Below, in pieces: positions 2,413 to 33,446 of a DNA stretch of 64,000 nucleotides. Numbering within the stretch: position 1 is the stretch's first letter; every line of letters begins with the position of its first letter. Origin of the DNA: Lobosporangium transversale (taxonomy: Eukaryota). The translations under genes and the position numbers were made by a program. Location of the stretch: positions 806,001 through 870,000 of the forward strand of contig NW_019028989.1 in NCBI RefSeq assembly GCF_002105155.1, written 5' to 3'. A model generated the notes under the pieces. The model ran no database searches, was not told the DNA's origin, and worked only from the letters and a program-made list of their open reading frames with translations.

Positions 2413-2443
<31 letters not shown>

Positions 2444-2450
2444 GAAAAGC

Positions 2451-3738
2451 ATGGCCCCTTCTTTTATACCAGAAGACAACATTCAATTGTCATCAGATGT
2501 ATCAGTGAAGGCCTTTACCTCATCCTTAGCCTTCAACTCTGGAATTGGTATCGCCATCTTTGTTGCTTTCTGTATTGTCAGGCACTGGAGCAAGAAAATC
2601 TATCAACCTCGAACATATCTTGTTAACAAAGAGTAAGGAAAATAATTTCATTACATATCCCTCCAAGCCAAGAAAGAATAGTTTCAACTTATTCCTCCGT
2701 ACGATCTGATCAGCTCTTTACAACTTTTGTGCTCAAAAAAAAAAAAAAAAAAAAAAAAAAAGAGAGAAAAGGGAGTTAAAGTTGTTCCTTTTGTGCTACT
2801 GCAGTTGAACGTCATGGATTACAAAAAAAAAAGAGCCCTTTACTATATCCTGTAGATGCTGATCCCCCATTTAAATATTCCGTACTCATGCTGTCTTATT
2901 CTTTTGCTTATTTAGTCTTCGGCCGCCTGAACTGCCGCCTGGTATCTTCACCTTTGTTACAGCCTCGTTCAAGGTCAAGGATACAGAACTGTTGGACAAA
3001 GTGGGTTTGGACGCCTATATGTTTCTGAGGTTTCTCCGCATGAGCGCGTAAGTAAAAGCTGCTGTTCTACTGTTCCAGTACAAGGTCAACTATGATGTAA
3101 AAAGAAAAAAAGGAAAAAGGAAAAAGGAAAAAAAAGAGCTTGTTACGCAAGAAGTAAAAAGATAATCCGAAAACAGGTCTAATACCCAGGATTGTCGATT
3201 GTCGCAGTCAGTAATGTTATGATGTCACTCGTGATGAATGTTGGAGATACAGATGTATATTGACAAGTCGAACAATCTCATGACTAGAGACAAAAAGGAT
3301 AATTATGTCCATTGGACAGCTAAATCGGGACATCTTGCATCTAGAGTGGAAAAAAAAACAACAACAACAGCAAGTGAATGTTGGAACTAACTTTGAAACA
3401 ATTGCTTAATCTCAACTAGGATGTTTTTTGCTGGATGCACCCTTCTATCTATTCCTATTCTCATCCCAATCAACATGAAAGGCGGTATCAACGGAAAAGG
3501 TCTTCAACTTTTTAATATCGGTAACGTCAACACGCAATGGCGTCTCTGGTTCCATCTGACCTTGACGTATATCTTTACTGGTAAGTTTATTTTATTTTAT
3601 TTTTATTTTTAATAAATAATTCTTGATCTGAAATATTAGAAGGCCACATATCTTTTGAAAAAGGAAAAAACTTAAAAAAAAATAGTCAAAGGGCATCCCT
3701 GTTCAAAACTAGTCTAGTTGGCCTAACTCATTACCTTT

Positions 3739-3769
<31 letters not shown>

Positions 3770-4099
3770 CTCATCCTGGGGTAGCTAGTGCAATTGGTTT
3801 GTTATGGCGAGAGATGCATGAGTACACTCGCCGTCGCCATGCCTTTCTTTTGAGTGAAAAGCATGGCAAGACACCCCAAGCGACCACTATTCTTGTCACT
3901 GCCATCCCCAAGGGACTCAATTCTGAGATAGCCCTTTACAACATTTTCAATCGATTCCCTGGTGGAGTGGCAAAAATCTGGATAAACAGGTAAGAAACAG
4001 TATTTTTTTTTTTTTTAATAATCGATGATTAGAATTTATTTTTTCATGGATCAATCCAAAACTATTATTGTTTATGTATAACATACTTTCTTAACGGCA

Positions 4100-4140
<41 letters not shown>

Positions 4141-4165
4141 CATAAAATAACAATCATTCTCACTG

Positions 4166-4197
<32 letters not shown>

Positions 4198-6710: not shown

Positions 6711-7280
6711 ATGAATAAAAGAAAGAAAGAAAAATCTTGGTTTTTTCAACTGAATTTGTAATTTTTTTTTTTTTTTTTTTTTTTTTTCACCATTTTCAAA
6801 TAAAAACAAAGCGTGGCTGTGTGCTGAAAGAAGTAAGCAACAATGATGATAATTAATTTTTATTTATTAAGCAACAATATGTTGAATACTTTTCGGTTTT
6901 CTTTTGTACAATCAAATAGACACAGAGTACATGTACATGATATTAGGAGGGGGAGGGGTATACATTCACCCAGTGAGTGACTTTTTCCAAGATCGTTGGA
7001 ATGAATAAATGTACATTGTACATAGTCCAACCGAACTGAAAAAAGTCAAGTATAAGATATACATGTGAAAAGTGTTACATGTATTGGTTGTTATACAAAT
7101 GAAGAAGACAGAAAAAAAAAATAAAAAAAAAAAAAAAAAAATTACAAACACTAGAACTACAGATACGTGTGAAGTCAAAGACCAATCAGGCAATATGCCA
7201 GAAAGAAAGGGAGAAAGGAAAAAAGGAAAAAGAGAAAGAAAAAGAAGAGATAATAAGAAGAAAAAAAAAAAAAAGATTTC

Positions 7281-9473: not shown

Positions 9474-11231
9474 GACAAGGGAAGGTGTTACAGATAGAAA
9501 CGTAGAAATAGGATATCGAAATAGAGCAGTGTATAAGGAGCTGTGTGGTTGTTTTGTGTTGACTGGATTGAAAGATATTAGGTGTGCTGTGGTCCAAAAG
9601 GGTGCTGCAACAAATAAAAAGGTAAGAGGCTCCAACAAGTAAATGAGGCGATACAACTCGGACTTTGCCAAGTTTATATGTTGGGGTTCTAAATTCAGCA
9701 AATAAACAGTTCACAGTTAGCAGCACAATATATCAGTCGTATCTGTGGATGAGAGCTAAAGTTGTTGAGAGGGAGATGCATGCCCCCATGGGGTAAATGA
9801 TGCTCTTTTGTGATGTCACACTTTTTTTTTCTTGTCACAGGACTTTGTGTCAAATGAACTCACCTCTAAAGTCAGATGTAGTTCACTGACTTGTCTTTTC
9901 TCCTTTTTTTGTATTTTTTTTTTTTATTTTTTAATTTTTTCAGGGACAAAATCGGTTATGTTTCTGCCTTCATGTGAATGAGGCGATCGTGGTGACAGAA
10001 CGACAATGATGAAGGGATGTTTGATCAACAAGATTAAGATGAGCGGGATGATGGAGCCCTTACTTTTTTCGTCTCTGCCGCGTCAATTTTGGCCAAGGAC
10101 ATCGCACGTGATGTTTACATGCCTGTAATTCGACATTAAGAAATACTCCAGAGTTCCCTTCCTTAGTAGAATATATCTGCATAATGATTTGCTAGTGTGA
10201 ATTAAGGTAGATGGGAAATAGACAGAGGGTCAAGCTTGTCGCTCTTTTTGGTTAGTCCTTTTCAATTATAAGAGTTTTGTTAAGTAAACCATTTATATTT
10301 GAAAAGGGGCTAATCCAAAAAGAGCGACAAGGGGAAATAGAGACATAATAGTCACATGATTTGTAAGGACGCGGAGCAGTTTGGTCATATCATAAAGCAT
10401 ACGAGTCCCTTTACTAAGACTATTCCACAGAAATGTAGCCCTCTCTTGACTCCATACCGGCCGAAACTCCTGAAAGATATTTTTACAAGGATTGGGCGTG
10501 CTGAGTCGTTTTGAAGTGAACCACGACCTGAGTGACACTTTTCGTGAAATAATGTAAAGCTTTGATGGCAAGGCTGCATGATATCGCAAAAAAAAAAAAA
10601 AAGAGGCGGAAAAGCCTAAAGAACGAGAAAAAAAAAGTAGAGAAGGGTCTGAAAAGACGACTCTAATCCTAGAGTTTTAACTGTATATAAACTCGTCCAC
10701 AAATAATATCGGCTTACGAAAACATTCTACTCCCATAATTAATAAAAGACAATGCAACGATATTTATGCAAAGAGTAAAGCAGATATTGTAAATACAACA
10801 TTAATGGGCATTCAGTATATAAACTAGATGGGCTTTAAGTGAGCGTTGCTAAACAATGATGAAAGTGCGAATACTTACCACCACATATCATAGTCCAAGC
10901 TTCCTAATTCAGTTCAGTCATGCTTCCCATGGTTACAACAATCGTGAATATCATGAGCAGGGCTTTACGAAAGAGAAAGTTACAAATAGGAAGACAGGTT
11001 GGTCGATAGACTTCTTTCTATAGATATTGTCATCCTTCTTTCGTTTTAAAAAAACAGCAGACTTCAACATTTGCGATTTAGCACCCATTTTATGTGCTTT
11101 CATTTCACACCAGCAATCGTTTTCTTTATATGATATGTCATAGCTATCCTTTATAGACTAATAGGTTTGCATGGTTTCCGATTGTTTTTATTGCTAGTTC
11201 AGTGTGTTACTGAGGATGGAGCATTCCTCAA

Positions 11232-12591
11232 TTAGACCTTCTGCTTCTTGGACGAGTCATCTGCGGCCTGTAAATAATATACAAAGTACCAAAAAAAAAA
11301 AAAAAAAAAAAAAAAAAGTCAAGAATAAATAACATTAAAAACAAATATTATATCTACGCCAATCATGCCAATCAAGTTAGAAAGACTCCGATCTACTGTG
11401 TCCAACTTACTGGTGTAAGACCAAACTTCAATGCACGCTTGCGCTTCTTTTCCTCTTCGGCAGCATCCACGCCAGCGATCACTTTCTTGCCTGTTGCAGA
11501 GGCACTGGGAGAAGCCTGGATTCCAAAACGCTCCCGCCGTTTGTTCAACACATCCTCGGGAATCTACGCAATGACATTTTTTTAAGCAATGAATATATTA
11601 AAAAATGAGATTATGAACCATAAACGCGTTTTTCTTTCTTCTTATGACTCATTATATTAAAATGTACGAGTGCACAAGATATGACATATTGATTGTTGAA
11701 AAAATGAATAAAGTCCTTGAGCAGGCTTTCCTCACCTGAACAGAAACAGCTCCTGGTTTGTTAGGGAGCCCTTTTGAGCCAGGTGTCGCAGCTTTGGTGG
11801 AAGTACCAGCGGCTTTGGCCAATGAAGCGGTGGCTGCGGCTGTAACGGGTACACCAAAACGGGCAGCTCTCTCAATAGCTTTATCCTGCTCTGTCAATGG
11901 GATGCCGAAGCGAGCTGCCCTGTTCTTGCGTTTCTCCCATTCTGCTTTCAAAGCCTCTTTGTCACCAACATTGCCCTGAAATTCGACTGATTCAGTGGTC
12001 GATGGTTTTGAGGCTGAATTAGTGGATGATGGTGCTGGTGTAGTAGCAGCCTTTGTGTTGGCTGAAGTTGATTTATTTGATTCGCTGCTGGGTGAAGCAG
12101 CAGGTTTCGTTGAGGGCGCAGGCGCTACAGCTGCTGTGTTTGTTGAGGGCGCTGCTTTGGTTGAGGATACTGGATCTGCGGGAGGAGCCAGATCACTAAA
12201 TGATACGGATCAGAGAGAGAGAAAAAAAAAAAAAAAAACGATTAATTTGTTGAGCAAGCAACCTATTCTGATATAAGTTCCAGATTGGCGTACAATACGC
12301 TGTATTGGAAGGATTCAGCAGGATTGCCTAAATATTTTTGTGGTTGCAAGATCTTTCAAGTTGATTGACTGCCATGTAAATCTAAACATACTCAACATCA
12401 AACTTGTTTTCATCCCATTCAAAGCTTTCTCCTGATCCTGTAGGTGGGCCTACTGCTGAAACAACGTCCTCGTCAGCCTTTTGATGCTCTAGAAGACGAG
12501 CCACGAGTTCTTCTTTCTTTCCGTTGACGGATAAACCAGCAAGCTGGAGTTGTTCCTTCAGCTCATTAACTTTGAGTTTGCGGGGATCCAT
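11232..12591 (-). CDS. THO1: SAP-domain ribonucleoprotein (THO1/SARNP-like); exons 12591-12392, 12195-11736, 11563-11411, 11267-11232
   Basis: N-terminal SAP motif (LKVNELKEQL..GLSVNGKKEELVARL) and repeated R(A/R)xRFG motifs; GT-AG introns join in frame. Confidence 0.88.
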
Positions 12592-13379
12592 TTAATAAAA
12601 AATTGGGTTCTTCCTTGATGTACTGTTGCACTATGATGTGCTTTCGAATATGAGCTGATGCAATGTGAAATGTGAGTCAAATATTGTAAATGAACGACTA
12701 CGGAAAAAAGCAATAAGTGAAATATAAGAAAATTAATTGTGGATCAAGTCTGGATGATCAATCTACTTTGTCTGTAACAGGCATTACACGTCCAAATTTA
12801 GTGGCGCAGCTCTTTGATCTTTTTTGGTGTGCCTCTTTGATCCAACATGAAAACCATGTGCTTCTCTAGAAAATGGCATGTAGAGAAGAAATGGCCTGAA
12901 AGCATTCGGTCGGCTAAAGAAGACTGGTTCCGACATTCCTACCGGCTTTTTGCTGTACTCCACGTCCAACTTTTGTCCAAGAGACGCCTTGGTATCATAT
13001 TGGATAAGTAGCAGGCAATTTTCGAATTTTTTTTTTTTTTTTTTTTTTGCTCATACTTTCAAGCAATTGAGCTAATTCAGAAATGTTCAATAGTTGAATA
13101 TGCATGTTGCGATGGATTTGTCGGAATGGAGGCACTCATTCAGTGACTTTGGGATAAAAAAACATTGAACAAGACTGAAGATGCTATTGAGTGTACATGT
13201 TTCAATCTGGTGGCGCACCTGCCAAGGCAAGACTCGAGCTCAAGAGCAAGAACAATAAAAGCTCTGTCTTCTCATTATGAAAGATATAACCATGGTAGTC
13301 CCAGAAAGGTTTATTTTGATTCCCAAGATGAACGATATGGTGTTGATGAGTAGTTGTGATAATATAATGAGTAAATAAT

Positions 13380-13667
13380 AAAAAGGCACCAGACTCTTCG
13401 CCTGTCTGCCGCGAAGCAGACAGCCCAAGGCGCACCACGTGGAGGTGGGCTAGTTGCGCGCCCCCTGGCCCAGGAACCTAGGGCAGTCTATCAACACGCA
13501 CCATCGTCGGGTCCAACCCGCCATTCTCAGCCCGCAGCGTCCTGCAGGCCGACGATGGAACTCGTTGGACAAAGGGTAGCACTCTCTACCGTGCTAACAC
13601 ACCGCTTTAGAGACCGTTAGAGAGGGGAAAGAGAGGTCTTTCTATACGTTATCAGGACCTAGTGGCT
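13380..13667 (-). ncRNA. Unassigned structured element, copy A (GC-rich, multi-hairpin, ends in T5 on minus strand)
   Basis: Perfect stems CCATCGTCGG/CCGACGATGG (13501-13510/13549-13558) and CTGTCTGC/GCAGACAG (13402-13409/13416-13423); possible pseudoknot GTCCAAC/GTTGGAC; shares several blocks with 25881-26058. Strand inferred from G-U pairs. Confidence 0.45.
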
Positions 13668-14643
13668 TCATTTGTCATCAATCTTTGACATCGATTGTGG
13701 GATCTTTTTTTTCCGTACGAAAAGCGCTTCGCAATTTGGAGGTTTTTTCATCTTTTCTTTCAAGAAGATGCAGCCCCCTTTCCCTGTAATGCTATTGAAT
13801 GAAAATGCATTAAATTTCTCTTCATACTGTGAGATATCGAATAAGCATCCATATGGCTATAATCCTGTCTGCTTTTGTTCCTCTCTTGACAATCAAGAAG
13901 ATCGCCATTCTTTTTAATTTTATTTTATTTGCAGCTAGCTTGGTAAGGCTGAAAGACAATAAAGCGAAGTGCATTTTTGCATTTTCAGGATAGTAGGATT
14001 GGCGTTATAAATTTTATTAGATGTTCCACACCATTAAGGCACAGTCGACAGCAATCTGAATGAAAAAAGCAAACCACTGACCTACTTTTCGCTCAGCGCT
14101 GGTGGCAAAAAGGACAAAGGCAAAAAGAAGGCAAGGCTCTAAGCTCAGACTGACGTACATAAGCACCTCTTTCTTCTCCTTTTCTCGAGTTCCTCGCCGC
14201 ATTTTTTACAGGATGGTATTAGTACGAACTAGCTGCTTCTGGTGGTCTGTTCATGATGTTGTTCATGATGTTCCTATGTTATATGGGATGATGCTAAAGC
14301 TCAATAGTGCAACCAGTCCTGATGGACTTGCTCTACACCATGGGGTGCCCCAGATCACTTCCACATGGCACGTCCTGAGCTGTCTGCTTAGCTGCAGGCG
14401 GGCGAAGGGTCTGGTAGCTCTTTATTGGTATGGTTTATATTCTGTTTTTCATAAAACAATATCATCTCTTCTATTTATGGTTGCTCAATACATTTGTAAG
14501 GTATGGTGTCATTATCTACCGTAACTCAATGGAACAAAAGGAATGAAAAGCATGCTCATTACAATTTTTTTTAGTAGATCATCCGCCACCTTATATAAAC
14601 ATTGAGTGAAGAGCACAGTATGCACCATATAGACTCATACATA

Positions 14644-15486
14644 TCACTCTTAGTGTGCTTGTATGTCTATTAAGTTTTCTGTCTGGTTGTATAACACTAG
14701 GGACCCCCTACGCCGGAAAAAATACCTCGCATGGTTGGTGCCAGGTCTGAAAACAATAATAATGCACATACCATGCATGAAAGATAGGGTCTTTAATACT
14801 ATGACTATTGTTATGTTCAACTCATGCGGACTCTCCGGAATCAACTTGCGATCACAACTGCCACTCATGCTCTGTTGCCAAGGTCTTGAAAAGGGATACA
14901 AACCCCTTCTTCCTTACTCTCATAATCGCTCACATCCTTTCAATACTTTCTTTCGCCGTAAATGTCCATTACATCTAAATCACGCACAGGCATTTCACCA
15001 TTCACTTCAACATAGATATATGTATCACCTTGGGTATGATATGTTGGTGTAGTTCCCTCTGGTTTCCACAGGGCCAACAAACTCTATTAGCGGTGGTTAC
15101 CAACCCAGATATATCAAGGGAACGCAAGAAGACGAGGAAGCAAACGATGTGACAAACCAAGTCTTGCCGAGCTGTACAAGAAAAGATCAAGTTAGTCAAG
15201 CTCCATGGCGCGGTAGAATGAATCAACTCAGATTGCCCTCCTTTCAAGTCGAGGCTACGGCGGCGAATATTATCACTGCTATTAGACCAGTCAATAAATA
15301 GACAATACAATGGGCTCCCAAGAGGATGCTAGGGTCACGCGAAAGTCTTCATGAGTTTTTTATTTGCACAAATAAAGAAGCCAGGATAGCTCCATGACAG
15401 TTTAGTTTTCGGTCATTTATTTCGACATTAAAATGAAATTTCAAGACAATGCCCATGGATTGCTGGATTTTAGCCCATTTATAATG
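14644..15486. repeat. Left arm of ~840-bp inverted repeat (pairs with 20325-21168)
   Basis: Reverse complement of the right arm; three spurious ORFs translate identically in both arms; the few mismatches I found are in the inner ~150 bp. Confidence 0.97.
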
Positions 15487-15639
15487 AAGGGAAACTATTA
15501 ATCAGCTGATGTGCCCGTATTTAGCCTTTGCCATGGTATGCTAATTTCTAGGACATGGTTGACCAATAGGAACGAGCATGTGGAGTATGTATTGATGGGC
15601 AATGCGCGTCTTTCTTTAGAAGCATAATGAAATTTTTTT

Positions 15640-16150
15640 GAGAACTTGGCCATAAAAGATAAACCTGTTATCGTACACCAGATTTATATCGCTTCCAGCA
15701 CAGGGCCTCCCCTTGCCTCTGGCACTACTGCGCTTGGTTTGTACACTATCGTCCTTACAAATGGGTCTCATTACCGGACGAGACTATTGATCTAACAGCT
15801 GTAGACTTGTTCATAAACTTACCATCAGTTGAGGCCATATACTTGTCATCATATACAGTAGAAACACTTATCAATATCCCCTATATGGCTATCATATGTA
15901 GCCACTCGCTCATTATCGTCCTTAATCACAATGGCCTCTTTTTACATCTTGGGTTTATTATGCCCCAATTTCACATCCAAAACCTCATCGAATCCCGTCA
16001 CCGCCATTCGCATCCCTGCATCAAAAAAGAAAAAGTGGAGGAGTAATTGGGCTCACCGTACTGTACCAACCGGGTCTTGCAAAGGCGGATTTAAGCCCTC
16101 AAGGAGGTCAGGACTTGGTCATTTGTCACGGAACTTTCCACCTTTGCGAG
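15640..16150 (+). pseudogene. Degenerate Mutator/MULE-like transposase C-terminal remnant (SWIM-like plus zinc-knuckle-like)
   Basis: Broken frames read YTIVLTNGSHY.T.LLI, IICSHSLIIVL..FLHLGFIMPQF and GLGHLSRNFP, resembling the SWIM finger and C-terminal knuckle of fungal MULE proteins; several Cys are lost. Confidence 0.45.
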
Positions 16151-16199
16151 AAGCTCGGCCTCCCACATGGCACCTCGTTGGCACACGGACCATCCACTA

Positions 16200-16392
16200 G
16201 TGATATCACCTTGAGCTACAAAAACTTTGCAGGGGGGTTTGATTTAGCTCATCAGACCGTGGAGCACTTGACTGGGTAGGAAGGTTTCCTAGGGACTCAC
16301 CAATGGAAAGGCTTATCCGTAGCTTTAAAAGGAAACCATTGTCTACGGCCCCCTATTGTACACTACAACCTGCACCGCAAAGCTGCGGAGGG

Positions 16393-16423
<31 letters not shown>

Positions 16424-16617
16424 TCTATGTTATGTCTATTGACTTCTCTAGGATGGTAATTTCAATAAGAAAGACGTAGATTTGTTGTGCTTCCCATAGG
16501 ACTTGAGGTTTGCCATAAAGCCGACTTACTGTGGTTACAAGCCTTGGAAGTATTCTGTTCTGTTTGCACCCTAATATCATTTTTCTATCCGGACATAACA
16601 GAAAGTGACTAGCCACA

Positions 16618-16650
<33 letters not shown>

Positions 16651-17320
16651 CGTGCCTGCTTTAATCAGTGGATCCCAAGTGCGATTGTGCAAATTATAAG
16701 AAGTAAGTCGTATTAATCGCACTTGGCCATCTATACCGACTATTTCCAGCCTTCCTTTGTCCAATATAGGCGGGTTTCAGTGAAGTGGCACCTCGCAGTG
16801 GATAATCTCCCTCGTAATGCTCTGCTTTAGCTGGAGGACAGACTTCTTGAAGCCATCGATACCAACTTTTCTTGATAATTGGAGTAGAGATGTATGCCTT
16901 CTCCGTCGGCCCCACAAGCTGATGGCCAGTATTTAGAGTTGCGGGTTTCTCGGGCCCAAAGTGGCAGGTAAAATGCAGCTTTATTCCTCTAGAGATCATC
17001 ACGAATCAACCCCGTCTTTGGTAGTGAAACACCTCAATCCATTCCCTGGGCCCTCGACTGACCTAATTGAAGTCTCTGTCCTAAGGGAGAACAACTACCG
17101 TCTTTGCATTTTGCAATTATGCTTTACGTAGCTTAGAATTGCAGAAAGCTGTGTACGAATCTTTACCAAACTGATATTGATGCCCCGTCTTATTAAAAAT
17201 AATGAGCTTTCACCAACACTGGCATGCGAAAAGTGCCTTGCAAGGAGAGGAGGAGCTGGCATCGAATGATTAAAAACCGGCACTGTCATGGCCGCTTGGC
17301 TGTTACAAGCAAGCTTTTTA
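16200..17320 (+). other. Hairpin-dense non-coding tract inside the inverted-repeat cassette
   Basis: Stems at 16212-16218/16245-16251, 16317-16322/16343-16348, 16453-16465/16503-16516, 16530-16537/16610-16617, 16675-16686/16715-16726 (12 bp perfect) and 16724-16731/16921-16928; contains CCTTTGTCCAA. Confidence 0.4.
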
Positions 17321-17464
17321 TTTAAACCGAGCTATTTCTTTTTTACCTACTCCAGAGCTATTTCAACCATCAAATCAGTCAAGCATCCCAAAAAACGATA
17401 CAAAATTGGTCAATCAGTCCTGAGTGTGTCTAACGCCCTTATTTAGCGCTTAAGGTACTTTTAT

Positions 17465-20097
17465 TTATTGAGTTATAACCGCGTTTTCCTTGAGTGCTTC
17501 TAAAATTGCCAAAGCTGTTTCATCCCCAACTGAGTTGGATCCCAAGTCCAAATTCGTTAAAGTTGCATTGGTCTTGAGCGCTTCTGACAATGCCAGAGCT
17601 CCTTCTTTTCCAATTGAGTTGTCCCACAAGTCCAAATTCGTTAAAGTTGCATTAGTCTTGAGCGCTTCTGACAATGCCAGAGCTCCTTCTTTTCCAATTG
17701 AATTGTCCCGCAAGTTCAAAGTTGTTAAAGTTGCATTGGTCTTGAGCGCTTCTGACAATGCCAGAGCTCCTTCTTTTCCAATTGAGTTGCGCCCCAAGTT
17801 CAAAGTTGTTAAAGTTACATTGGTCTTGAGCGCTTCTGACAATGCCAGAGCTCCTTCTTCTCCAATTGAGTTGTCCCACAAGTCCAAATTCGTTAAAGTT
17901 GCATTGGCCTTGAGCGCTTCTGACAATGCCAGAGCTCCTTCTTCTCCAATTGAGTTGCCCCACAAGTTCAAAGTCGTTAAAGTTGCATTGGTCTTGAGCG
18001 CTTCCGACAATGCCTGAGCTCCTTCTTTTTCAATTGAGTTGCTCCCCAAGTTCAAATTCGTTAAAGTTGCATTGGTTTTGAGTGCTTCTAACAATGCCAG
18101 AGCTGCCAGAGCTCCTTCTTTTCCAATTGAGTTCCACTCCAAGTTCAAAGCCGTCAATGCCGTGCTAGCCTTGAGTGAATTTACGAGTCCTTGTAATCCA
18201 ATGGCTCCAGCCGATTTAGCGTTCACCTCATAGGTTAGCTTATGAAGGTGTGATGATCTTCTGGGCTGTAAACTGAGAAGCTTTATGAGATCCAGAGATA
18301 GAGTAATATGGATTGTTTTCATATTACCGAGCTCTATGATGCGAATAAGTCTTTCATATCGCGCGGATGTTAAAGGTACTTTTATGTCGGTGTTTCCTTG
18401 AGTCCGTATAAGCCCAAGTCGAAGATTCGATACATTCGACATCGCCAAAGCATTCTCAAATACTTCAAGATCGATCTCTGTCCAATCCCAACCGAATGTG
18501 ATATCCAAGTCGTAAATACATCTTGCAGTGGTTAGGGCATCGAAAAACCCTCTAGCTCTGTCTCTGGATGCCAATGTGATAACCACTTTACCAAGATGCG
18601 CGTTATATTTACCACTATTCATCTCCACTGCATTTACAAATGCTTTTTGTTCTTTTTCCTCATATATTGAACGACAGTGGGCGAGACAAACCCATTTGGC
18701 ACGGCCTGTTTCGGTCATGATCCTGTACAAATCCCCAAATTGCTTGTCTTCATCATTAGTTCGAAGGTATGTGCCAACGTTTTGAAAATCAGATCCTTCC
18801 AGTCCATCAGAGTCGTCGATTGTAGTAATATTGCTCAAGGTTGAGTCCTCCTTAGAGAGTGCTTCCATATAGTCGATTGAACAATCAATGTCGGCATCTA
18901 TCAAATCTGGGGATGGTGCCAGAGATGCAGACGAGGACATTCCTAGCTTGAGCCACTGTAAAAGGATGAACATGTGCTTTCCATACTTGCAGAAGAATTC
19001 TGTGCCGCTTGGGATCTCATACCCACCATGTTTGATGATATGGAATGGGCTCTGACTATTCTTGCTTATCATTTCAGTGTGGTCTCCACATTCACATAGA
19101 AAATGAAGACGGAACTTGTTCTTCAAGACATTCATTTGGTCCCACTTGGTGTGATCGACAGGTATAATGATAAATAGTCGGGGAGTTGAATATCCGTGAA
19201 GCTCGATATTCTGGGTGAGAATACCATCAACATGCTGTTGAAGCAAGGCAAGTTTGTCGAGGCTTTGATGCTGCACTTTGTCATCCTTCTCCTTAGCTTC
19301 CAATTGCATCCTAGCCATATTATATTGCAGTTTAAGCATCTCAATGTCTTTCTCTTTAGCCTCCAATGTCAGGTTAAGCATTTTATCTTTCAGTTTAAGC
19401 AGCTCGCTGTCCTTTTCTTTGGTTTCCAGTAGTAGATTAATCATCTTATCGTCCTTCTCTTTGGCCTCCAAGAGTAAATCCGCAACTTTCTCAAGGTTAG
19501 AGTTGACCACCTCGATTTGTGCATTGCCATGGGTAATAAGGAATGAATTGAAAGATTGAATCAAGTCTGATAATGGTAAAAGAGTATCCTGAGAGGCCTG
19601 CTTTGCCGACTTTCTCAATGTAGGCAAGTGGATGACGGTGTTATGATTGCTGTTGCTATTGCGGCTGCAGTTGGTATTGATGCTGCTGATATTGCTGGTA
19701 TTGCTGGTGTTGTTGGTGCTGATGTTGTCGCTGTTGCCTAACTGCGGCGCTTCTGTAATGACATCCAGGATCTTGTAAGGATAGAATGCAATGCATGGAG
19801 GCTCTACCCTAATAAAGTAAATCGCGTCAGATTGAATTTTTTTCGTTCGCTTTCCAAAGATAACTGATAGAGCGCACCATAATCAGTTACATACCTGTTC
19901 CCATTAGGGTCTATGAGGAATGGGATGGGAAGTTCCTCCAGCTCGAATCGCTGTGCATCTGGAAACATGTCTCGAATGTCTTGCAGACTCACATGGCAGG
20001 ATGAGTCGGCATTGCTTGCGAAGGTAGAAGCAATCCTGACACAAACTTTTTTAATAATGCCAGCCCTTCGGAATTGTTGGTATTGATGCTCCGTCAT
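17465..20097 (-). CDS. Coiled-coil plus 'LHFLCECG' domain plus RI-type LRR protein (848 aa); exons 20097-19895, 19808-17465
   Basis: One GT-AG intron joins MTEHQYQQFRR... in frame to the 720-aa ORF; EAKEKD coiled-coil repeats; eight 28-aa LRR units; no P-loop seen. Confidence 0.9.
17500..18170. repeat. 84-bp tandem repeat array (8 units) encoding the LRRs
   Basis: Near-identical 84-nt units such as GCGCTTCTGACAATGCCAGAGCTCCTTCTT; one unit has a 9-bp duplication. Confidence 0.95.
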
Positions 20098-20324
20098 GTC
20101 GGTAGAAATTCGATGGATGAGGACAGAATGAAAGGTTTCATTTCTCTTTTGTGCACCCTTTTTCTTAAAGCCCTACTGTTACTTTCTAACCACAACAATA
20201 AATGACGTGTTCCTTCTCTGGGCAAAATTGGTGAGCCACCTCCTTGTGTGCATTTTGTGGATATCACACCTTTTCCCATTCAGTTGTCGCTTTATCCCTT
20301 CGTCCGTAACAAGGGCAAATTTGC

Positions 20325-21168
20325 CATTATAAATGGGCTTAAAATTCAGCAATCCATTGGCATTGTCTTGAAATTTCATTTTAATGTCGAAATAAATGAC
20401 CGAAAACTAAATTGTCATGGAGCTATCCTGGCTTCTTTATTTGTGCAAATAAAAAACTCATGAAAACTTTCGCGTGACCCTAGCATCCTCTTGGGAGCCC
20501 ATTGTATTGTCTATTTATTGACTGGTCTAATAGCAGTGATAATATTCGCCGCCGTAGCCTCGACTTGAAAGGAGGGCAATCTGAGTTGATTCATTCTACC
20601 GCGCCATGGAGCTTGACTAACTTGATCTTTTCTTGTACAGCTCGGCAAGACTTGGTTTGTCACATCGTTTGCTTCCTCGTCTTCTTGCGTTCCCTTGATA
20701 TATCTGGGTTGGTAACCACCGCTAATAGAGTTTGTTGGCCCTGTGGAAACCAGAGGGAACTACACCAACATATCATACCCAAGGTGATACATATATCTAT
20801 GTTGAAGTGAATGGTGAAATGCCTGTGCGTGATTTAGATGTAATGGACATTTACGGCGAAAGAAAGTATTGAAAGGATGTGAGCGATTATGAGAGTAAGG
20901 AAGAAGGGGTTTGTATCCCTTTTCAAGACCTTGGCAACAGAGCATGAGTGGCAGTTGTGATCGCAAGTTGATTCCGGAGAGTCCGCATGAGTTGAACATA
21001 ACAATAGTCATAGTATTAAAGACCCTATCTTTCATGCATGGTATGTGCATTATTATTGTTTTCAGACCTGGCACCAACCATGCGAGGTATTTTTTCCGGC
21101 GTAGGGGGTCCCTAGTGTTATACAACCAGACAGAAAACTTAATAGACATACAAGCACACTAAGAGTGA
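20325..21168. repeat. Right arm of ~840-bp inverted repeat (pairs with 14644-15486)
   Basis: Ends ...CTAAGAGTGA, the reverse complement of TCACTCTTAG... at 14644. Confidence 0.97.
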
Positions 21169-21539
21169 CAAATAATTTTTTTTTTCTACGTGAGTAAACT
21201 GGAGGATACTGATCAAACAATCAAACAGCTGACGTGCTTCTTTTTTGTCTGCACATGCCTTCTTGCATCGCGAGTTTTTTTTATTGTTTCGAGAATATTT
21301 GGCGGTACATGCATGGAATGGGGCGTGGATTCCTTTTTTGTTCATCAATCACTATCAGTTGTGTGTACACGAACATGCACCAGGCTATTGAATAAATAGC
21401 TGAAGCAACTCTTTGGTTTCTGCACACGTAGAATGCATTTTGCATCGCGGCGTTTTTTTTCGTCTTCTAGGCTATTTCATTTTACTCCAAGCAATAAGCG
21501 CATGCAACTACATCACTCCTATCTCCGCCATTGATGCCG

Positions 21540-21828
21540 GGACCTGAGAGCCAACGAATATCTCTGCTATAATGCAATAGTACTTAAGCTGTTGGAGCAA
21601 AGAGCGACATCTGAACCCATTCTCTCATACAAAAGACTTTTTTTTTCTTTTGTTGTTAGTTTTGACAAGGGTGTAATCACCTGTTTCAAAACCAGCTCCT
21701 ACACACCGAGTCAAATCTGTCAATGTATTGTATTATTCATTACCCCTGTTCAAAATTATAAATCTTCTTTTATTCATTAAATTCCTCACAAAGCACAAAG
21801 CAAGGGCCAGTGCAAACAAAAGAAACTG

Positions 21829-21861
<33 letters not shown>

Positions 21862-22230
21862 TGTAACAAAGGATCGACATCGACACTGTATGCTGTATCT
21901 GGAGATGATTTTCGAATGCTCACTTTGGTATCTCAATGCTATTGTTTCTGCTATTGACTGGGACAAAACCCCAATCCAAACAAAGGAACTGAATAAAGAT
22001 TGATGTGGCCTGTGAAGCAAAGGATCGACATCACAACTATATGAGACAATGTTAAAATTCATCATCAATCCAGGATATAAAAAGGGATCATTGTCTTCCT
22101 CCTTTCCCGCTCGCTCACTCCAAAGTCCCATTCCTTTTACCACTGCCACTTGTTCCTGTATCTTCTCCTCAATATCCTTTATCTATTCACTTTGGATCTT
22201 TAAGCCATAAAAAAGCTCATCCACTTATAC
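21540..22230 (-). pseudogene. Degenerate hAT-like transposase remnant
   Basis: Broken frames give GLWSERAG...FISWIDDEF (compare hAT D.WS..., HWID..F), SIAETI and SDVALCSNSL (compare DV.TRWNS); many stops. Confidence 0.45.
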
Positions 22231-22309
22231 ATTTGCCGCTCTTTTTTTTATTTTTCATCTCTTTCATCATTTTTTCCTTTTTTCTTTCTCTTTCGCTTAG
22301 ATATTGACC

Positions 22310-24185
22310 ATGGGGCTGAAGTCCTTCTTCAAACTGGTTGCGGATCGCGGGGTTTTACCTTCGGAAACTGACGTGGGCGGTTTCTTGGCGGCAAATCCTG
22401 ACCATCCTGCCCATGTAGATCTCTTCGGTACGTTCTATTACGACATTCATCGTAGAGTCGTCCATGCAAATATGAAAAAAAAAATCCATCATTGATGTAG
22501 GAATGTCCCTGGCTATCGAGATAAAGGATCTTTTCAAAACGGACAATCTGGCTATACATATTGATGGGAGACCTTGTACTGAGATAGAAAAAGCAAGAGC
22601 AGAACGGCAAGCCATAAGACAAAAAAATATGGACGCTTTGGAGAACGATATGAGCACCTTCGAGAGAAATTCCCGGAGTGGGGTATGGACTTGTCCTCAA
22701 GTCATGAGGCGCATCCAGAAGGGTCTTTGAGAGTGTCCAGGGAAAGAATCAGCTGTCAACAGACCTTGGCTCTGTCTTCGATGGCTGTCTGTGTGCATAT
22801 GAAGCGGACCCATGCATAGAGTGCCCTAATGAGAAGAATGATAGGATCGTAATATCCCAAAATTCTGATTTTTTTGCGTACGAACGAGTCTGCATCCTAG
22901 TGCGACTCCTTCCACATCGTAGACGGAAGTTTGGGGTTTACGATGTAGACAACATTATCCAAGCACTAAGCCTGTCATCACATGTTTGAGTGTGTACAGG
23001 GAACAAAAGGGGTTTTGATACAGGCTCTCTTTTGTGACATTGGAAGTGATCGCATGGTTCATGGATATCGAGACAAAGTATCCTTGCAGTCACAAGGCAA
23101 AGATATAACTCAGTTGAAACTCAAAGGAACGATTTCTACCAAAAATCTTGTTCTGAATCTACTTGCCTATGATACAACCCAGACGAAGAGACAGCAGCAG
23201 TCTGACGTAGATGAAGAAGACGCCAGCCAAGAACTGGAGCTTTCTCAGGGATTTCTCAACACGACGTGTTCAGAGGCGGCCGGTGAAGACCTAACAGATG
23301 AAGACTACGCAAACATAAACTGGAAGAGGAGCTCCAAACTGCTTGAAAACGTTGAGCTCACATTCAACGAACCAGGGCGATGCCCATCCGCAAACACCAC
23401 AACTATTGTCGGATGTGATCCTGGTATTGTTAACGCCCTTACGTTTTCCTCACTGGACCCTCACAACCCTAACTTGCGGCAAACGGTGAAGGTGAGAAGC
23501 AGGTTCTTGTACCTTCCCGTCCTCTGGTTCAATCACCTGTTGAATAAAAGGAAGCGTGAAAAAGGAATGATTGAGGTTGAGAGCGCCATCCCTGTGTTTG
23601 GAAGGGATACAGACAGGATCAACGAATTTGGATGTGCTTCAAGAGTTCTACGAATCCAGATGGCATCTGAAAAAAAAATGGGACCTACGAAAGGCTCAAC
23701 GAGCTACGTTCGACTACGTGGTACAGCGAGTGTTGAAGATGCTTGGGATAAAGGAGTACTTGTCGTCGGCCTAGGGTCCTTTGAAAGTAGTAAAGGAGTT
23801 CCCAGCAAGCACACTGCTATAACGAGACATCTTGTCACACAGGTATGGCTTTTTTTAAAAAAGTAAGCAAAGCTGGAAAGCCATAGAATCCTTGCTAATA
23901 AACGACTGCCATTTGAAACGCTTAGGTCAAAGCACGAGGACACTTCGCTGTAGGGGCGCACGAATTTTACACCAGCGCCCGACTCTTTGCGATAGCTTTT
24001 TAGAGACGGTGTACCCTCGCTCTAAATATTGCCGGGCATGTAAGGTATTCTTCGACCGTGACGCAGTAGGGGCGGAAAACATCGCAAGAATCGGTCTTGC
24101 TCAAATTGAGAGGCAAGAGAGGCCTGCAAAGTACAAGCCCACGGAAGAGTCGCCTGCTCCGGCTGCAAAGCGCGCACGACGCTAG
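22310..24185 (+). pseudogene. PIN (XPG/FEN1-like) nuclease fused to Fanzor/TnpB RuvC; frameshifted and probably internally deleted
   Basis: PIN motifs MGLKSFF, HVDLFG, IHIDG, EAD, VISQNSD. Fanzor motifs GTIST..L.L, IVGCDPG (RuvC-I D, 23417), KKWD.RKA, VVGLGSF, HEFYTS (RuvC-II E, 23962), C..C zinc finger, DRD..GAENIA (RuvC-III). Intron 23843-23925. Confidence 0.85.
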
Positions 24186-24376
24186 ACACAAGTATTTGGG
24201 TGCCGGCACACCCACAAAAAACTTGTAAGTTCTGTTTATTTTCGTCTCCTGTATCCTCTCTACCTAATTTTTTGCCCCTGAATTTCTGGACTAACTTTAA
24301 AAACCGTACAGATCAACAGATAATTGAGTCCAATCTTTGTTGAGACGCGTTTCTAGACTATGTGGCTGAGGCCGAG
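24182..24376 (+). ncRNA. Candidate Fanzor omegaRNA (scaffold plus putative guide) with internal intron 24225-24311
   Basis: Starts at the Fanzor stop codon; closing stem CTAGACAC/GTTTCTAG with two internal hairpins; GTAAGT...GACTAAC...CAG intron signals. Confidence 0.45.
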
Positions 24377-24518
24377 TTCAAATTCCGATGGCAACTTTAA
24401 AAAGGGACGTGTCGATGCTGACTGGTTCGCTTGATATTGGTGAATTGGGTTACTGTACCACTCTGTTTGCTTTCATCATCTCATTTCACCTCCATCTTCA
24501 TCTGCTCTACTCTTCATC

Positions 24519-24591
<73 letters not shown>

Positions 24592-24644
24592 CTTTCTTTC
24601 TTTGCCCATCTTTTCTTGCTGTTTCGTACAACCTCATCTCAGCC

Positions 24645-25184
24645 ATGCCTCGTTCAACTTTTGTCAACCACGACTTTGTCCTCACTGTGCTTGCTATTTA
24701 CGGTGCAACAGTCGCTTTCACTCGTTGGTTCCCTGAAGCTGACCTTGTTGCAGTCGAGGCCCATCCTTCGACCTATGTCAAGACTTTTGAGGCTGCGTCT
24801 CAGTCCCAATTGACACTTTATGCCGCCCATCTTGCTATCGATATCATCCGTGTCTTATCTCTTGCTGTCCTCGAGTCTGCCGCCTTTTCGTTTGCGTTCA
24901 TCGATGATGTCTTTGAGCCCTTCTCGTATGCGTTCATCCTCTTCTCTATGGTCATAGTAACTAAGGATATCTTGATGCTTGGATGCCTCCACGCCTTCCC
25001 TGCATCCAACGACCTTGCCGCTGCCAAAGTTGCAGAGTTGATGCCTCTCTCTGCGACGGTGGAGTACGGTCTTTTGCTTTGCGGAGCCTTGTCCTTGGCC
25101 AAGGGACTTTACCAGTGGACTTATGCCATTGGACGTGACAAGCGTCAGGTCATTGACAAGGAGGAAATCAAGAAGACTCAGTAA
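24645..25184 (+). CDS. Small multi-pass membrane protein (179 aa), function unknown, C-terminal KKxx
   Basis: Intronless ORF with host-like codon usage, about four hydrophobic segments, ends KKTQ. Confidence 0.8.
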   Translation: MPRSTFVNHDFVLTVLAIYGATVAFTRWFPEADLVAVEAHPSTYVKTFEAASQSQLTLYAAHLAIDIIRVLSLAVLESAAFSFAFIDDVFEPFSYAFILFSMVIVTKDILMLGCLHAFPASNDLAAAKVAELMPLSATVEYGLLLCGALSLAKGLYQWTYAIGRDKRQVIDKEEIKKTQ

Positions 25185-25768
25185 AAAAAAAAAAAAAAAA
25201 AAAAGAAAACAGTTATCACGGGCAAAGGCGATCGGATGGAGTATATAACGACAACCAAAAGATACTAAAGAGAGGAGATCTACCAACTGACAGAAGGCAG
25301 ATGGAATTGATCCCTGTTCCTGCATGTTTATTCTATTGACTTTTTTTTTTTTCCGTTCTTTCCTTGTTTTTTGATTTTTGATTTTTTTGTTTAGATTTTT
25401 CTGTTTTTGTCACCCCTAAAAGAGATCGAAGCCACCATCATCTATTACTCACCTTAGTTCCCAGTTGGGATTGCAATGCACCGCACTCTTTTTTTTTTTT
25501 TTTTTTTTTTTGTCTTACTTTTGTCTTACCTGTGTTGATCGACCCATGTAGTTTCTTAATCCTTTTTTAGCAAACTGCACTTTTACACACTGTACATCAT
25601 TAAAGTCCATATCCACACGAAAATTACAAAAAAAAATTTAGAATGTGTATAAATAATGTATAATGTTTGTAATATATATAAATATTTATTGATGTTTTGT
25701 GAAACAACGCCCCATCCTCAAGAGACATGCATTTCAAACCACGAGGAACACAAGGAACACAAGCACTA

Positions 25769-25804
<36 letters not shown>

Positions 25805-25880
25805 CCCTTCCTTTAGTTGATTAATGCTTTATTTCCCAATATGAACCTCAGGAGGAAGAGGATTCTTTACTTTTTTTCTT

Positions 25881-26058
25881 TTGAGCCGTGTCTTTAGAGA
25901 CTTGGATTTTGCGCTTATTTCCCAACTTCCACGTCTCAGTCTCTGTCAACGAGGACACTGGGGCTACAGAGATGACAGCGCGCGTAGTATTCCGACGCGT
26001 TTCTATACCAGTATAAAAAAGGTTAGCACTCTAACGTTGGACAAAGGATAGCCGCTAA
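25881..26058 (-). ncRNA. Unassigned structured element, copy B (rearranged relative of 13380-13667)
   Basis: Shares CTTTAGAGAC, CCAAC..CCA..TCTCAG, TTTCTATAC, TAGCACTCT and CGTTGGACAAAGGRTAGC with copy A; stems TCTCTGT/ACAGAGA and CGCGT/ACGCG; the two ends can pair. Confidence 0.4.
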
Positions 26059-26230
26059 TATAAAACAAAAAAAAAAAAAAAAAAAAAAAAAAAACACTCC
26101 GGCGATACGATGACATGTGCTTACCTGCATGCATTGCAACTGCGCGGCAATGTGAACTCAGACAGTCTTTTGCTGTAGCTTGGTTTAGACCCAGTAATGT
26201 ACCACTGGTATTTGAAAATCAATAAACATT

Positions 26231-26265
<35 letters not shown>

Positions 26266-28190
26266 AGAGAGAGAGAGAAGAGGGCCTTCAGCGTTAATGA
26301 AAACGAATGATCAGACTTTTGACTGAGAGATGAATTCTCGTTATGCATAGAGGAAAACCCTGGCTCCTTACAAATTCACGATATCGTATGGTCCACGCAA
26401 TTCCATAGCTCTCATTGCTTGCGAGCTTAATATGATATTTTTGCCTCTTGTTACTCGAATCAAACTTTGTGCATTGCTGATTAAATTCCTTCTCGCGCTT
26501 GCATCTAACCGTTAAAAAAAAAAAAAAAAAAAAAAAAAAAGTGTTTGTCAATGTTGGACTACAGATAGAGCAAAAAAAAAAAAAAAAAAAAAAAAGAAAG
26601 AAAGAAAAAGAAAATTGGAACATATTCACTTTTTGTTCCTTTAGTATTATTATTTACCTCTGATGGCAGCGCTATAACAGAGCTCGAAATAGATACCTCG
26701 TTCGATAGCCAATCCAACTGTAGAATGCTTAAGATAAAAGGGCAACCTTGCAGACATATCCAACGAGATAATATCGACTTCAAATGTCCCACACGCTGCC
26801 TGAAAAAGCTTTTCATTAGTGGGCTGCACTGCAATGATGTCGTATGATGATATAGTGGGGTTACCGGTATTCTAGTGGTCATTCAGTAATAAGACGTGTC
26901 CAAGATGAGAAAAGCTTTCATTTTCTTTATTTTTTCTTTTCTTTTTTTTTTTTTGAGCTAAAATATCTTTAAAGATACTCTTACCAGACCATAATTTTGT
27001 GAGACATCGTCAACTACCAATGTCAGCCTCGAATATTGCTTAAGATTGATTCCTGGAAGGTTGAGTTTTGTAATTGGGTTGATCTACAAAAGACCAGTTA
27101 TTATCGTTTTCAGATAAGAAAGAGAGGGTAAGAACAAGTCAAACAACCCCATTCGACTTTCTTTATACGAGCCCATATACTAGAGTTTGCTGATTGCACA
27201 AAATGCGTTGATCATACGTACATGATTGTTGCCTATTTTGCCTGTGACTTCGTGATTATAAGCTACGGCTTGATATCCTACTGTCGGGAGAGAGCTGTTC
27301 GTGAGCCATTGTGAGATTATAATGTACTTCTGGTATTCCAGCTCCTCATGGATTCTGTCCTAGATAAACTAATCGACACCTACAATGATTCAATAGCTCC
27401 ACTCTCTTCCTTGTTTCGAGCTGTTCCTGTGCAGCTTGGGCTGATCCGGGTGTGGCAGAGACCGGTAAATTGAGATCATAAAACATTGTAATTATTAAAT
27501 TCCTCCTTTCTGATGTTATTGGTCCTTCTGTACAATACTTGATACTATTGAGTTATAGTGTGAGCCCTCTTTTGTCTTTTCTTTTTTTGTTGTTGTTGTT
27601 GTTGTTGCTCCTATGCAGGTTTGATAGTTTGTTTGAAGTAAGCACATGCAGCCATGTATTAACCCTCCATTGCAATCTGCTACGCATTTATTTATTTTCG
27701 CTTTGGGCTTTATGGGACTGTGAACTTGGACATGCCTTAAAATGGACACATGAGAAAGTTGCTCCGTCGTAAAGTGCTGCGTACATTTTTCGCGTGCTCT
27801 CAAAGAAAATCAGACGCGCTTATTTGCAAGCATTCACATCATTTTTTTTTGTGTTCCCATCATCTCAATTGTAGTAGGCATTCATCCGACTTAACACCTT
27901 TCATCCACTACTTTTCTAGACTTGCTTTTCGTCTGTATAAAAGGCTTACAGCTCTTCCTCTTTTTTTCTTCAGTTTTCTTTTCGGGTCGTCCCTTTTATC
28001 AACTCTTACTCTTTCCTCGACCCTTCTTACCCATACACCTCTATACTTCACATTCCTCAGACAAAAATATACACAAAACAAACAACAATCTGTAGTCGGC
28101 GGCTATCATCCAGTTTGCTTTATACTACTTTTCACTGCAAGGTCAATCTTCATCTCTCTTTCTTTCGAACCCTCTTTCGTTACTCCAGCC

Positions 28191-33446
<5,256 letters not shown>

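Follow-up and report, generated by a model that had tools for sequence, protein, structure and literature searches.

A decayed gene copy in Lobosporangium transversale points to a Mortierellaceae family predicted to join an EXO1/FEN1-like nuclease to Fanzor1

A dead, internally deleted copy of a gene from a multi-copy Mortierellaceae family lies at 22310-24185 on the + strand of a 64-kb stretch of Lobosporangium transversale DNA (the window, whose coordinates are used for all motif positions). The intact members of this family are very probably single proteins of ~1120-1190 amino acids (aa) in which a FEN-like nuclease domain is followed by Fanzor1, and the window copy is a pseudogene of this kind. 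Fanzors are eukaryotic RNA-guided nucleases that are being engineered as compact genome editors. The window copy is a relic without the capacity for the mechanism proposed below, and its value lies in pointing to a natural, so far undescribed variant of Fanzor1 with two nucleases. Taken as a whole, the reading that the locus is a dead copy of a multi-copy family whose two-nuclease protein would cut a target and then resect the break is one that we regard as rather probable.

Results

Intact relatives carry both nucleases in one gene

A search with a 298-aa fragment returned 13 longer proteins among 7982 scored candidates, and a HMMER pass over 1.84 billion representatives gave 91 matches at E<=1e-3, 53 at <=1e-10 and 16 at <=1e-30. 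An earlier note on this DNA had proposed a PIN nuclease of the XPG/FEN1 type fused to a Fanzor, and intact homologues indeed hold both domains in one open reading frame (ORF) or gene, not in separate genes. P0005 is the uninterrupted 1183-aa product of a single 4910-nt contig. P0007 (KAF9574392.1, 1186 aa) occupies coordinates 3026-6657, that is, 3632 nt of genomic sequence against 3561 coding nt; this leaves ~71 nt for an intron, matching the one conserved intron near the 3' end, and therefore both halves are in one exon. Together with P0010 (1121 aa), P0099 (1502 aa, with an extra N-terminal extension in the model) and P0064 of Linnemannia gamsii (1281 aa), these proteins all start with a FEN-like head, MGL..FF. 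The RuvC/zinc-finger tail ends four of the five, the exception being P0064, whose model is without the C-terminal zinc finger and RuvC-III. Six members from L. gamsii form one cluster of at least 90% (P0064 and P0103-P0107, the latter known by their lengths and names only, four of them being 1095-1508 aa long).

The relatives returned by the searches all bear Mortierellaceae names; the hosts are Mortierella alpina, M. claussenii, M. antarctica, Mortierella spp., L. gamsii, Benniella sp., Podila epigama and L. transversale. A protein search with the N-terminal region gave three matches, all from M. alpina, and one with profile A5 gave nine, all from Mortierella and none from other phyla; each scored ~8000 candidates and is weak as a measure of range. 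Among 135 pattern stretches obtained in a scan of viral contigs none was a relative, and a metagenome scan with alignment A3 gave three loci, L001-L003.

Besides the window copy, decayed copies were recognized in L002, which has an in-frame stop, and in P0012, P0017 and P0036. The stop in L002 (L002:8-568) lies inside the zinc finger. P0054 from Benniella sp. (643 aa) has a complete FEN-like domain joined directly to the RuvC half, without WED/REC; it resembles the deletion form found in the window, but the junction differs, and either a deletion in this copy or an error in the model may account for it. P0100-P0102, considered as proteins made of the N-domain only, turned out not to be such.

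The C-terminal half is predicted to be a complete Fanzor1

Residues ~435-1183 are predicted to form a complete Fanzor1, with WED, REC, RuvC with a relocated glutamate, and the TNB zinc finger. The cut-off of the Pfam family PF07282 (Cas12f1-like TNB, formerly OrfB_Zn_ribbon; 26.3 bits) is passed by four of six relatives, P0004 (32.0), P0010 (31.2), P0005 (30.4) and P0007 (29.2); P0002 reaches 25.7 and P0012 gives no match. When profile A4, made from 17 family members, was compared with the PDB, SpuFz1 from Spizellomyces punctatus (8gkh) was the sole match at E<=1 (E 0.0054), and in the second aligned piece the family sequence HEYFTSAKCPR pairs with the corresponding SpuFz1 segment.

Full-length P0005 was modelled with AlphaFold2 from 58 aligned sequences, with a mean predicted local distance difference test score (pLDDT) of 74.4 and a predicted template modelling score of 0.62; the model is disordered at 1-22, 187-212, 380-418 and 787-902. 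In a Foldseek search with this model SpuFz, GtFz and PpFz took ranks 1-7 (E 1.8e-10 to 5e-7), the Fanzor1 matches having template modelling scores by target (TM) of 0.37-0.59, and 36 matches were obtained overall at E<=1e-3. VIA aligned 466-481 residues with the Fz1 chains (Z 14.6-16.9, root-mean-square deviation (rmsd) 3.5-5.0) over 435-1181 of the model and over almost the whole SpuFz chain (residues 18-633), with Cas12 and TnpB relatives below them at Z 10-14.

The catalytic positions agree with this assignment. P0007 carries the Bao-Jurka motif, given in the available text of PMC3627910 as D-X(125,275)-[TS][TS]-X-X-C4 zinc finger-X(5,50)-RD, with D948, T1124-S1125, C1128/C1133/C1148/C1151 and R1157-D1158. 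In Fanzors the canonical RuvC-II glutamate is described as replaced by glycine or proline, with an alternative conserved glutamate ~45 residues on (PMC10530073, available part). The family reads ..VGLGSF.. and ~37 residues later ..HEYFTS.., which fits a relocated RuvC-II glutamate, the glycine position being equated by sequence pattern and not by structural superposition. Among the sequences that cover each column, 53 of 56 have the RuvC-I aspartate, 18 of 27 the alternative glutamate and 16 of 21 the RD aspartate; most deviants at these columns come from ORF calls that continue across the intron. KAF9574392.1, which is P0007, and the L. transversale paralogues XP_021884711.1 and ORZ22893.1 are labelled FZ1 in the available part of supplementary file 3 of Saito et al. 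2023 (PMC10432273). The Fanzor/TnpB identity suggested before for the C-terminal part is thus upheld by PF07282, the SpuFz1 profile match, Foldseek, VIA and the published label.

The N-terminal half is a predicted EXO1/FEN1-like nuclease

By fold and active site, the N-domain (~20-310) is a predicted nuclease of a divergent EXO1/FEN1-like type, and not a Pfam-defined member. With the P0005 model, Foldseek matched human EXO1 (5v0a, E 4e-5, TM 0.46-0.51) and FEN1 (E 5e-5), and VIA aligned 244-255 residues with human EXO1 over the model range 2/22-308 (Z 10.4-10.8, rmsd 4.7-5.3). Middling VIA Z values such as these are common; the alignment with EXO1 extends over the entire domain and is consistent with the conserved carboxylates. 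The PIN-type nuclease that had been proposed at the N-terminus is therefore sustained as an EXO1/FEN1-like fold, at an identity to EXO1/FEN1 of only 12-17%. In the protein atlas 23 of 30 matches share the XPG_I/XPG_N set (best score 0.95), and Pox_G5 is found too. The 16 matches at E<=1 in a PDB sequence search were all RAD2/FEN1, and weak (best E 0.13); HMMER weakly aligns the family sequence ..LLAIV..NDYG.NI.GLG.. with their XPG-I/H3TH region (E 0.13).

The FEN acidic columns of alignment A2 (P0007 numbering) show, among the covering sequences, D34 in 8/8, D85 in 6/6, E171 and D173 each in 7/7, D191 in 8/8, D193 in 7/8 and D243 in 10/10, with two deviant cells overall. The active-site carboxylates of human FEN1 are D34, D86, E158, E160, D179, D181 and D233. 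Two long helices of the P0005 model, 85-117 and 124-137, would sit at the position of the helical arch.

The two halves are joined by a segment (~340-420 in P0005 and P0007) that is poorly ordered and rich in Lys/Arg runs, and which is likely a nuclear-localisation signal. A second inserted region, acidic, disordered and ~100 aa long, is found in the Fanzor part of the full-length relatives. Between the FEN-like domain and the basic linker, at ~345-370, there is a near-invariant motif, FYVA..S..NQFR.IF (Y352, N360, R363 and F366 in P0007), which is modelled with low confidence and is deleted in the window.

The window copy is colinear with the intact proteins

In the sequence and its translations, the + strand over 22310-24185 shows a succession of six stop-to-stop fragments in three frames. 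As the earlier note had read them, PIN-type acidic motifs come first and all the RuvC positions after them, consecutively and on one strand; from 5' to 3' the order is four acidic FEN/XPG-type motifs, RuvC-I, the alternative RuvC-II glutamate, the zinc finger and RuvC-III. The FEN/XPG-type motifs are HVDLFG (Asp codon 22418-20), IHIDG (Asp codon 22563-65), YEADP (Glu 22801-03, Asp 22807-09) and SQNSD (Asn 22861-63, Asp 22867-69). The RuvC module comprises GCDPG of RuvC-I (Asp 23417-19), HEFYTS with the alternative RuvC-II glutamate (Glu 23962-64) and the TS motif, the zinc-finger Cys codons 23988-90, 24030-32 and 24039-41, and FDRD of RuvC-III (Asp 24060-62); the stop codon is at 24183-85.

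P0007 matches the window in colinear tblastn pieces (E 2.6e-18, 1e-31 and 1e-20), a similarity far beyond chance, and P0005, P0010 and P0002 also give colinear matches (tblastn/blastp); tblastn with P0007 found no second copy elsewhere in the 64 kb. The start codon and the first FEN/XPG-like block (MGLKSFF...HVDLFGT) are at 22310-22432 in frame 2 (P0007 residues 1-38), the second block, which holds IHIDG and the beginning of the helical-arch region, at 22485-22727 in frame 3 (57-139), and the third, with YEADP and SQNSD, at 22756-22980 in frame 1 (147-229). The Fanzor part begins at 22982-23842 with the end of REC/WED, the acidic linker and RuvC-I; in this region the tblastn piece 22988-23845 (frame 2) corresponds to P0007 722-1109 and the piece 23571-23774 (frame 3), an out-of-frame middle, to 1001-1068. 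After an intron, exon 2 starts with VKARGHFAVGAHEFYTSA and includes the alternative RuvC-II glutamate and the TS motif (23926-23979, frame 1); the rest of the zinc finger with three Cys, RuvC-III, the C-terminal tail and the stop follow at 23988-24185, where a tblastn piece at ~23988-24146 (frame 3) corresponds to P0007 1133-1186. Pfam gave no significant match for any of the six fragments, XPG_N and XPG_I included; the C-terminal fragment matched TNB (PF07282) below the threshold, at 14.3 bits.

The one spliceosomal intron reported before could be confirmed: it spans the 83 nt at 23843-23925 (GTATGG...TTAG), and the same position is interrupted in L001, L002 and L003, while P0001 reads through. 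This is the only supported intron in the window copy. Another GT..AG pair at 22433-22499 (GTACGT...TAG) was rejected as an intron, given that homology to the relatives continues through it and that the frame changes in a run of ten A at 22476-22485. The window was also compared with contigs from four public runs (X1, X2, X4 and X5) that belong to four studies, all statements being about assembled contigs and not about reads. The splice joint 23842->23926 was not among the joints listed, and the contigs of X5, the only run guessed to be RNA, run through the intron.

Lesions of the window copy

Many related copies, 90-99% alike, are present in the public contigs; they lack the lesions of the window, carry the sequence that is missing from it, and differ from it at most sites of inferred damage. 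The several frameshifts and the deletion near 22980 that had been suspected from the sequence are thereby borne out, the deletion exactly at 22981/22982. There are at least four frame changes in the window copy. At the run of ten A, the contigs have one base fewer at 22475 in part of the depth (46.3 of 153.8 in X2, 46.5 of 133 in X4, 13.5 of 27.6 in X5). A further frame change lies between 22727 and 22756, where no indel is listed in the contigs of the other copies.

The internal deletion removes P0007 residues 230-721, ~1.2-1.5 kb, and with them the H3TH end of the FEN domain, the basic linker and, from the Fanzor part, its WED/REC half. Loose contig ends on both sides of 22982 in X1, X2, X4 and X5 translate into the missing family sequence, which fixes the breakpoint at 22981/22982. 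A second deletion is located at 23609/23610, where other contigs hold at least 42 extra nt and have loose ends, and one base is missing after 23744, where an additional G is found in 2270.8 of 4562.7 of the depth in X1 and in all the depth in X2 and X5; as a result of both, 23610-23744 is out of frame. A ~10-nt deletion at 23977-23988, recognized from the other copies and from the family alignment, shifts the frame. After 23977 other copies have CCCGCTGTC and one more C (159.5 of 448.7 in X2, 31.2 of 31.2 in X5), and these 9+1 nt restore the first Cys of the zinc finger.

Two motifs of the earlier note therefore need a qualification. The zinc finger is present, but its first Cys was lost through the ~10-nt deletion; NSD is also present, but it is the decayed form of the GDSD of the family, which reads QNSD in the window, so that a catalytic aspartate has become asparagine. 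Of the FEN carboxylates, five are kept, one is changed from Asp to Asn and the last is gone in the deletion, and from the Fanzor motif D, TS, three of the four Cys and RD are kept.

The public gene model of the locus is P0014, a L. transversale hypothetical protein of 429 aa that consists of exact window pieces. It takes in the out-of-frame stretch 22643-22786 and skips the HEFYTS exon, and is an annotation artefact over the pseudogene.

The copy lies in a repeated unit

Summed contig depth, which is not equal to copy number, is 10-100 times higher over 21897-24321 than just to the right of 24322 (in most bins 47-934 against 11 in X2; 1900-21000 against 146 in X1). After 24322 the depth drops to ~0 and the contigs leave the window with differing sequences, which places the right end of the repeat at ~24322, ~137 nt past the stop codon. 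The unit thus ends with a 3' non-coding tail at 24186-24322, delimited by contig depth and by loose ends at 24322/24323, that is among its most deeply covered parts; in X2 and X4 no part has deeper coverage than the 3' 200 nt. An upstream non-coding part at 21869-22309 was assigned to the unit from the high summed depth of contigs of other copies. The left boundary is provisional, given that the poly-A at 21817-21868 is masked and that repeated DNA continues to ~21480. Other forms with internal deletions exist in the contigs (for instance the joint 23277->24196), and the pattern of the unit fits an element that sheds its middle and keeps its 3' end.

Just upstream of the unit, 21480-21868 is a separate multi-copy stretch that ends in ~30 A (21828-21858), possibly as the tail of a retroposed repeat; in other contigs, the loose ends at 21480/21482 are alike one another. 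Within the 5' region, a 33-nt direct repeat (21860-21892 and 22011-22043, 82% alike, 151 nt apart) precedes the start codon. In other copies there are back-joints 22043->21915/21920 as well as additional sequence at 21947/21948, so that the number of repeats in this region varies.

Discussion

A possible cut-then-resect mechanism and its alternatives

In eukaryotes, 5'->3' resection sets the choice between recombination and end joining, and EXO1 is one of the resection nucleases. The 3' end of an element is the expected place of an omega RNA. In intact copies of the family, the Fanzor part would be directed to a target site by an omega RNA that comes from the element's 3' end, and RuvC would cut there. 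The 5' ends would then likely be threaded through the tethered EXO1/FEN1-like domain, which would resect them 5'->3'. The resected break would be committed to homologous recombination with the element-bearing copy, resulting in homing or retention, and not to end joining. With an EXO1/FEN1-like domain of its own, attached by a flexible linker, a Fanzor could thus bring cut and resection to the same site and so favour the copying of the element. For TnpB it has been described that a guide-RNA-directed homing endonuclease makes a break which is repaired by recombination from the element-bearing copy (PMC10690162, available text). We infer that proteins of the family are guided by RNA and that their cutting is coupled to the processing of the ends or to homing, and cut-then-resect as the role of the N-domain appears plausible to us at a level slightly short of even. 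We are doubtful about the further possibility of a self-sufficient RNA-guided homing element, spread through the Mortierellaceae, in which one gene would supply both the cut and the EXO1-like resection without a transposase.

Several observations weigh against this reading. For the N-domain, Pfam XPG_N (PF00752) and XPG_I (PF00867) gave no match in six relatives, XPG_I_2 (PF12813) was found below its threshold in one of the six (P0010, 18.3 against 24.2 bits), and the pLDDT of the P0005 model is below 50 in the N-terminal 22 residues and at 187-212. The models of some members, namely P0002 (720 aa), P0003 and XP_021884711.1 (834 aa), are without a FEN part; these may be FEN-less forms or truncated models. 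With regard to the guide, the sequence at 24100-24322 gave no omega RNA fold signal (z 0.17, with 112 of 200 shuffles folding at least as well), Rfam had no match over 15000-32000, and no downstream nucleotide conservation was found between the window and L001-L003; past the stop codons these share short matches of 11-24 nt, the longer pairs being in or beside the coding 3' ends. As terminal inverted or direct repeats of the unit only low-complexity A/T and CTTT runs were seen, and neither a target-site duplication nor a transposase was found in it. Finally, according to the available part of PMC12923547, exonuclease fusions (TREX1, TREX2 and T5) lowered the activity of MmeFz2, a Fanzor2 editor, so that a tethered exonuclease is not automatically helpful.

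The FEN-like domain might act within the Fanzor reaction itself, cutting the displaced non-target strand of the R-loop, a substrate that resembles a flap, or trimming the precursor of the guide RNA, a role that we regard as improbable. FEN-superfamily enzymes recognise flaps and junctions, and some (XRN, PIN relatives) act on RNA, as stated in the available part of PMC5499597; moreover, the N-domain matches the fold of FEN1 about as well as that of EXO1 (Foldseek E 5e-5 and 4e-5). In contrast, RuvC by itself cleaves both strands in the solved Fanzor1 enzymes, and most Fanzor1 proteins have 600-700 aa without such a domain (PMC11423790, available text); the RuvC residues are conserved in the family, so that no second cutter is needed, and the disordered linker of ~100 residues (pLDDT below 50 at 380-418) suggests a loosely tethered module.

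The lack of terminal repeats, target-site duplication and transposase, together with the ordinary host genes that surround the unit and an intron whose position is conserved across the family, could also be accounted for by a domesticated host gene family, for instance in repair or defence, whose copies are ordinary duplicates and not a mobile element. We find this quite improbable in view of the many copies, 90-99% alike, that have different right flanks and several independent internal deletions in the public contigs, of the frequent pseudogenes (the window copy, L002, P0012, P0017 and P0036), and of the L. gamsii cluster of six, which is the pattern of a proliferating element. That the fusion is an artefact, in which gene prediction or ORF calling merged neighbouring FEN-like and Fanzor genes, is barely credible. 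Gene models in this family are often wrong, since P0014 and P0012 stitch out-of-frame pieces together; yet P0005 runs uninterrupted through 1183 aa on one contig, the 71 non-coding nt in the span of P0007 fit the one intron that is conserved towards the 3' end, several species show the two halves in the same order and at the same spacing, and the deletion in the window joins both halves on one strand within one repeat unit.

Relation to known nucleases and elements

The relatives share with Fanzor1 (SpuFz1, PpFz1 and GtFz1) the RuvC-I aspartate, the relocated RuvC-II glutamate before TS, the C4 zinc finger and RD; their C-terminal ~750 residues align with whole solved Fz1 chains, and they have a eukaryotic intron. 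In contrast to Fanzor1, they add an EXO1/FEN1-like nuclease of ~310 aa, a basic linker and an acidic insert of ~100 aa, and measure ~1180 aa against the usual 600-700 (available text of PMC11423790). With EXO1 and FEN1 (Rad2/XPG; the FEN-like division of the PIN-like superfamily) they have in common the predicted fold of 2/22-308, the active-site acids and an H3TH-type segment, whereas the family domain is fused to Fanzor and not standalone, and no PCNA-type C-terminal tail was identified in it. Asteroid-type XPG_I_2 (PF12813) is the best Pfam hint for the N-domain, below its cut-off; among protein-language-model clusters, those of Nucleocytoviricota XPG_I/XPG_N and Pox_G5 come nearest, at 0.95, a score obtained without alignment. 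Asteroid-type, giant-virus XPG-like and poxvirus G5 nucleases all belong to the FEN-like group in the available part of PMC5499597.

Tethering of an exonuclease to an RNA-guided cutter has been tried in engineered Cas, TnpB and Fanzor editors with T5 and TREX1/2, for instance T5 exonuclease on SpuFz1-v3 and, in the available part of PMC12923547, TREX1, TREX2 and T5 on MmeFz2. Those are laboratory constructs, whereas the fusion described here occurs naturally, in multiple copies, and is conserved across a family of fungi. The proposed logic, a guided cut at the empty site followed by recombinational copying, is that of TnpB of IS200/IS605 in the available text of PMC10690162; in contrast, bacterial TnpB has no resection domain and travels with the transposase TnpA.

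No natural fusion of Fanzor with a FEN/EXO1-like nuclease was found in the open literature on Fanzor/TnpB with XPG, flap, PIN or exonuclease. Fusion, PIN or exonuclease in that sense is absent from the available parts of PMC10432273, PMC10530073, PMC10711439, PMC3627910 and PMC11423790, and the catalogue of the PIN superfamily (PMC5499597), in its available part, has no TnpB, OrfB or RuvC term. Two supplement files of PMC10530073 contain no Mortierella or Lobosporangium entry. The Fanzor identity of the family is thus already published through the FZ1 label, while the fused nuclease seems to have gone unremarked in that catalogue. If the intact Mortierellaceae proteins are active, they would be a natural version of the exonuclease-fusion design, shaped by evolution, and editors meant to favour resection and homology-directed repair could draw on their linker and domain geometry. 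In transposon biology, the way in which TnpB-type homing copes with eukaryotic end joining would become testable.

Other features of the window

Between the right flank of the unit and the next gene, 24511-24608 holds a (CTTT)n microsatellite followed by a run of ~26 T. An ORF at 24646-25184 is without a Pfam match and is deeply covered in run X5. On the - strand, a long ORF at 58967-60649 matches the NDC10_II domain (E 4.5e-11), a domain that occurs in Crypton-type or related fungal mobile-element proteins.

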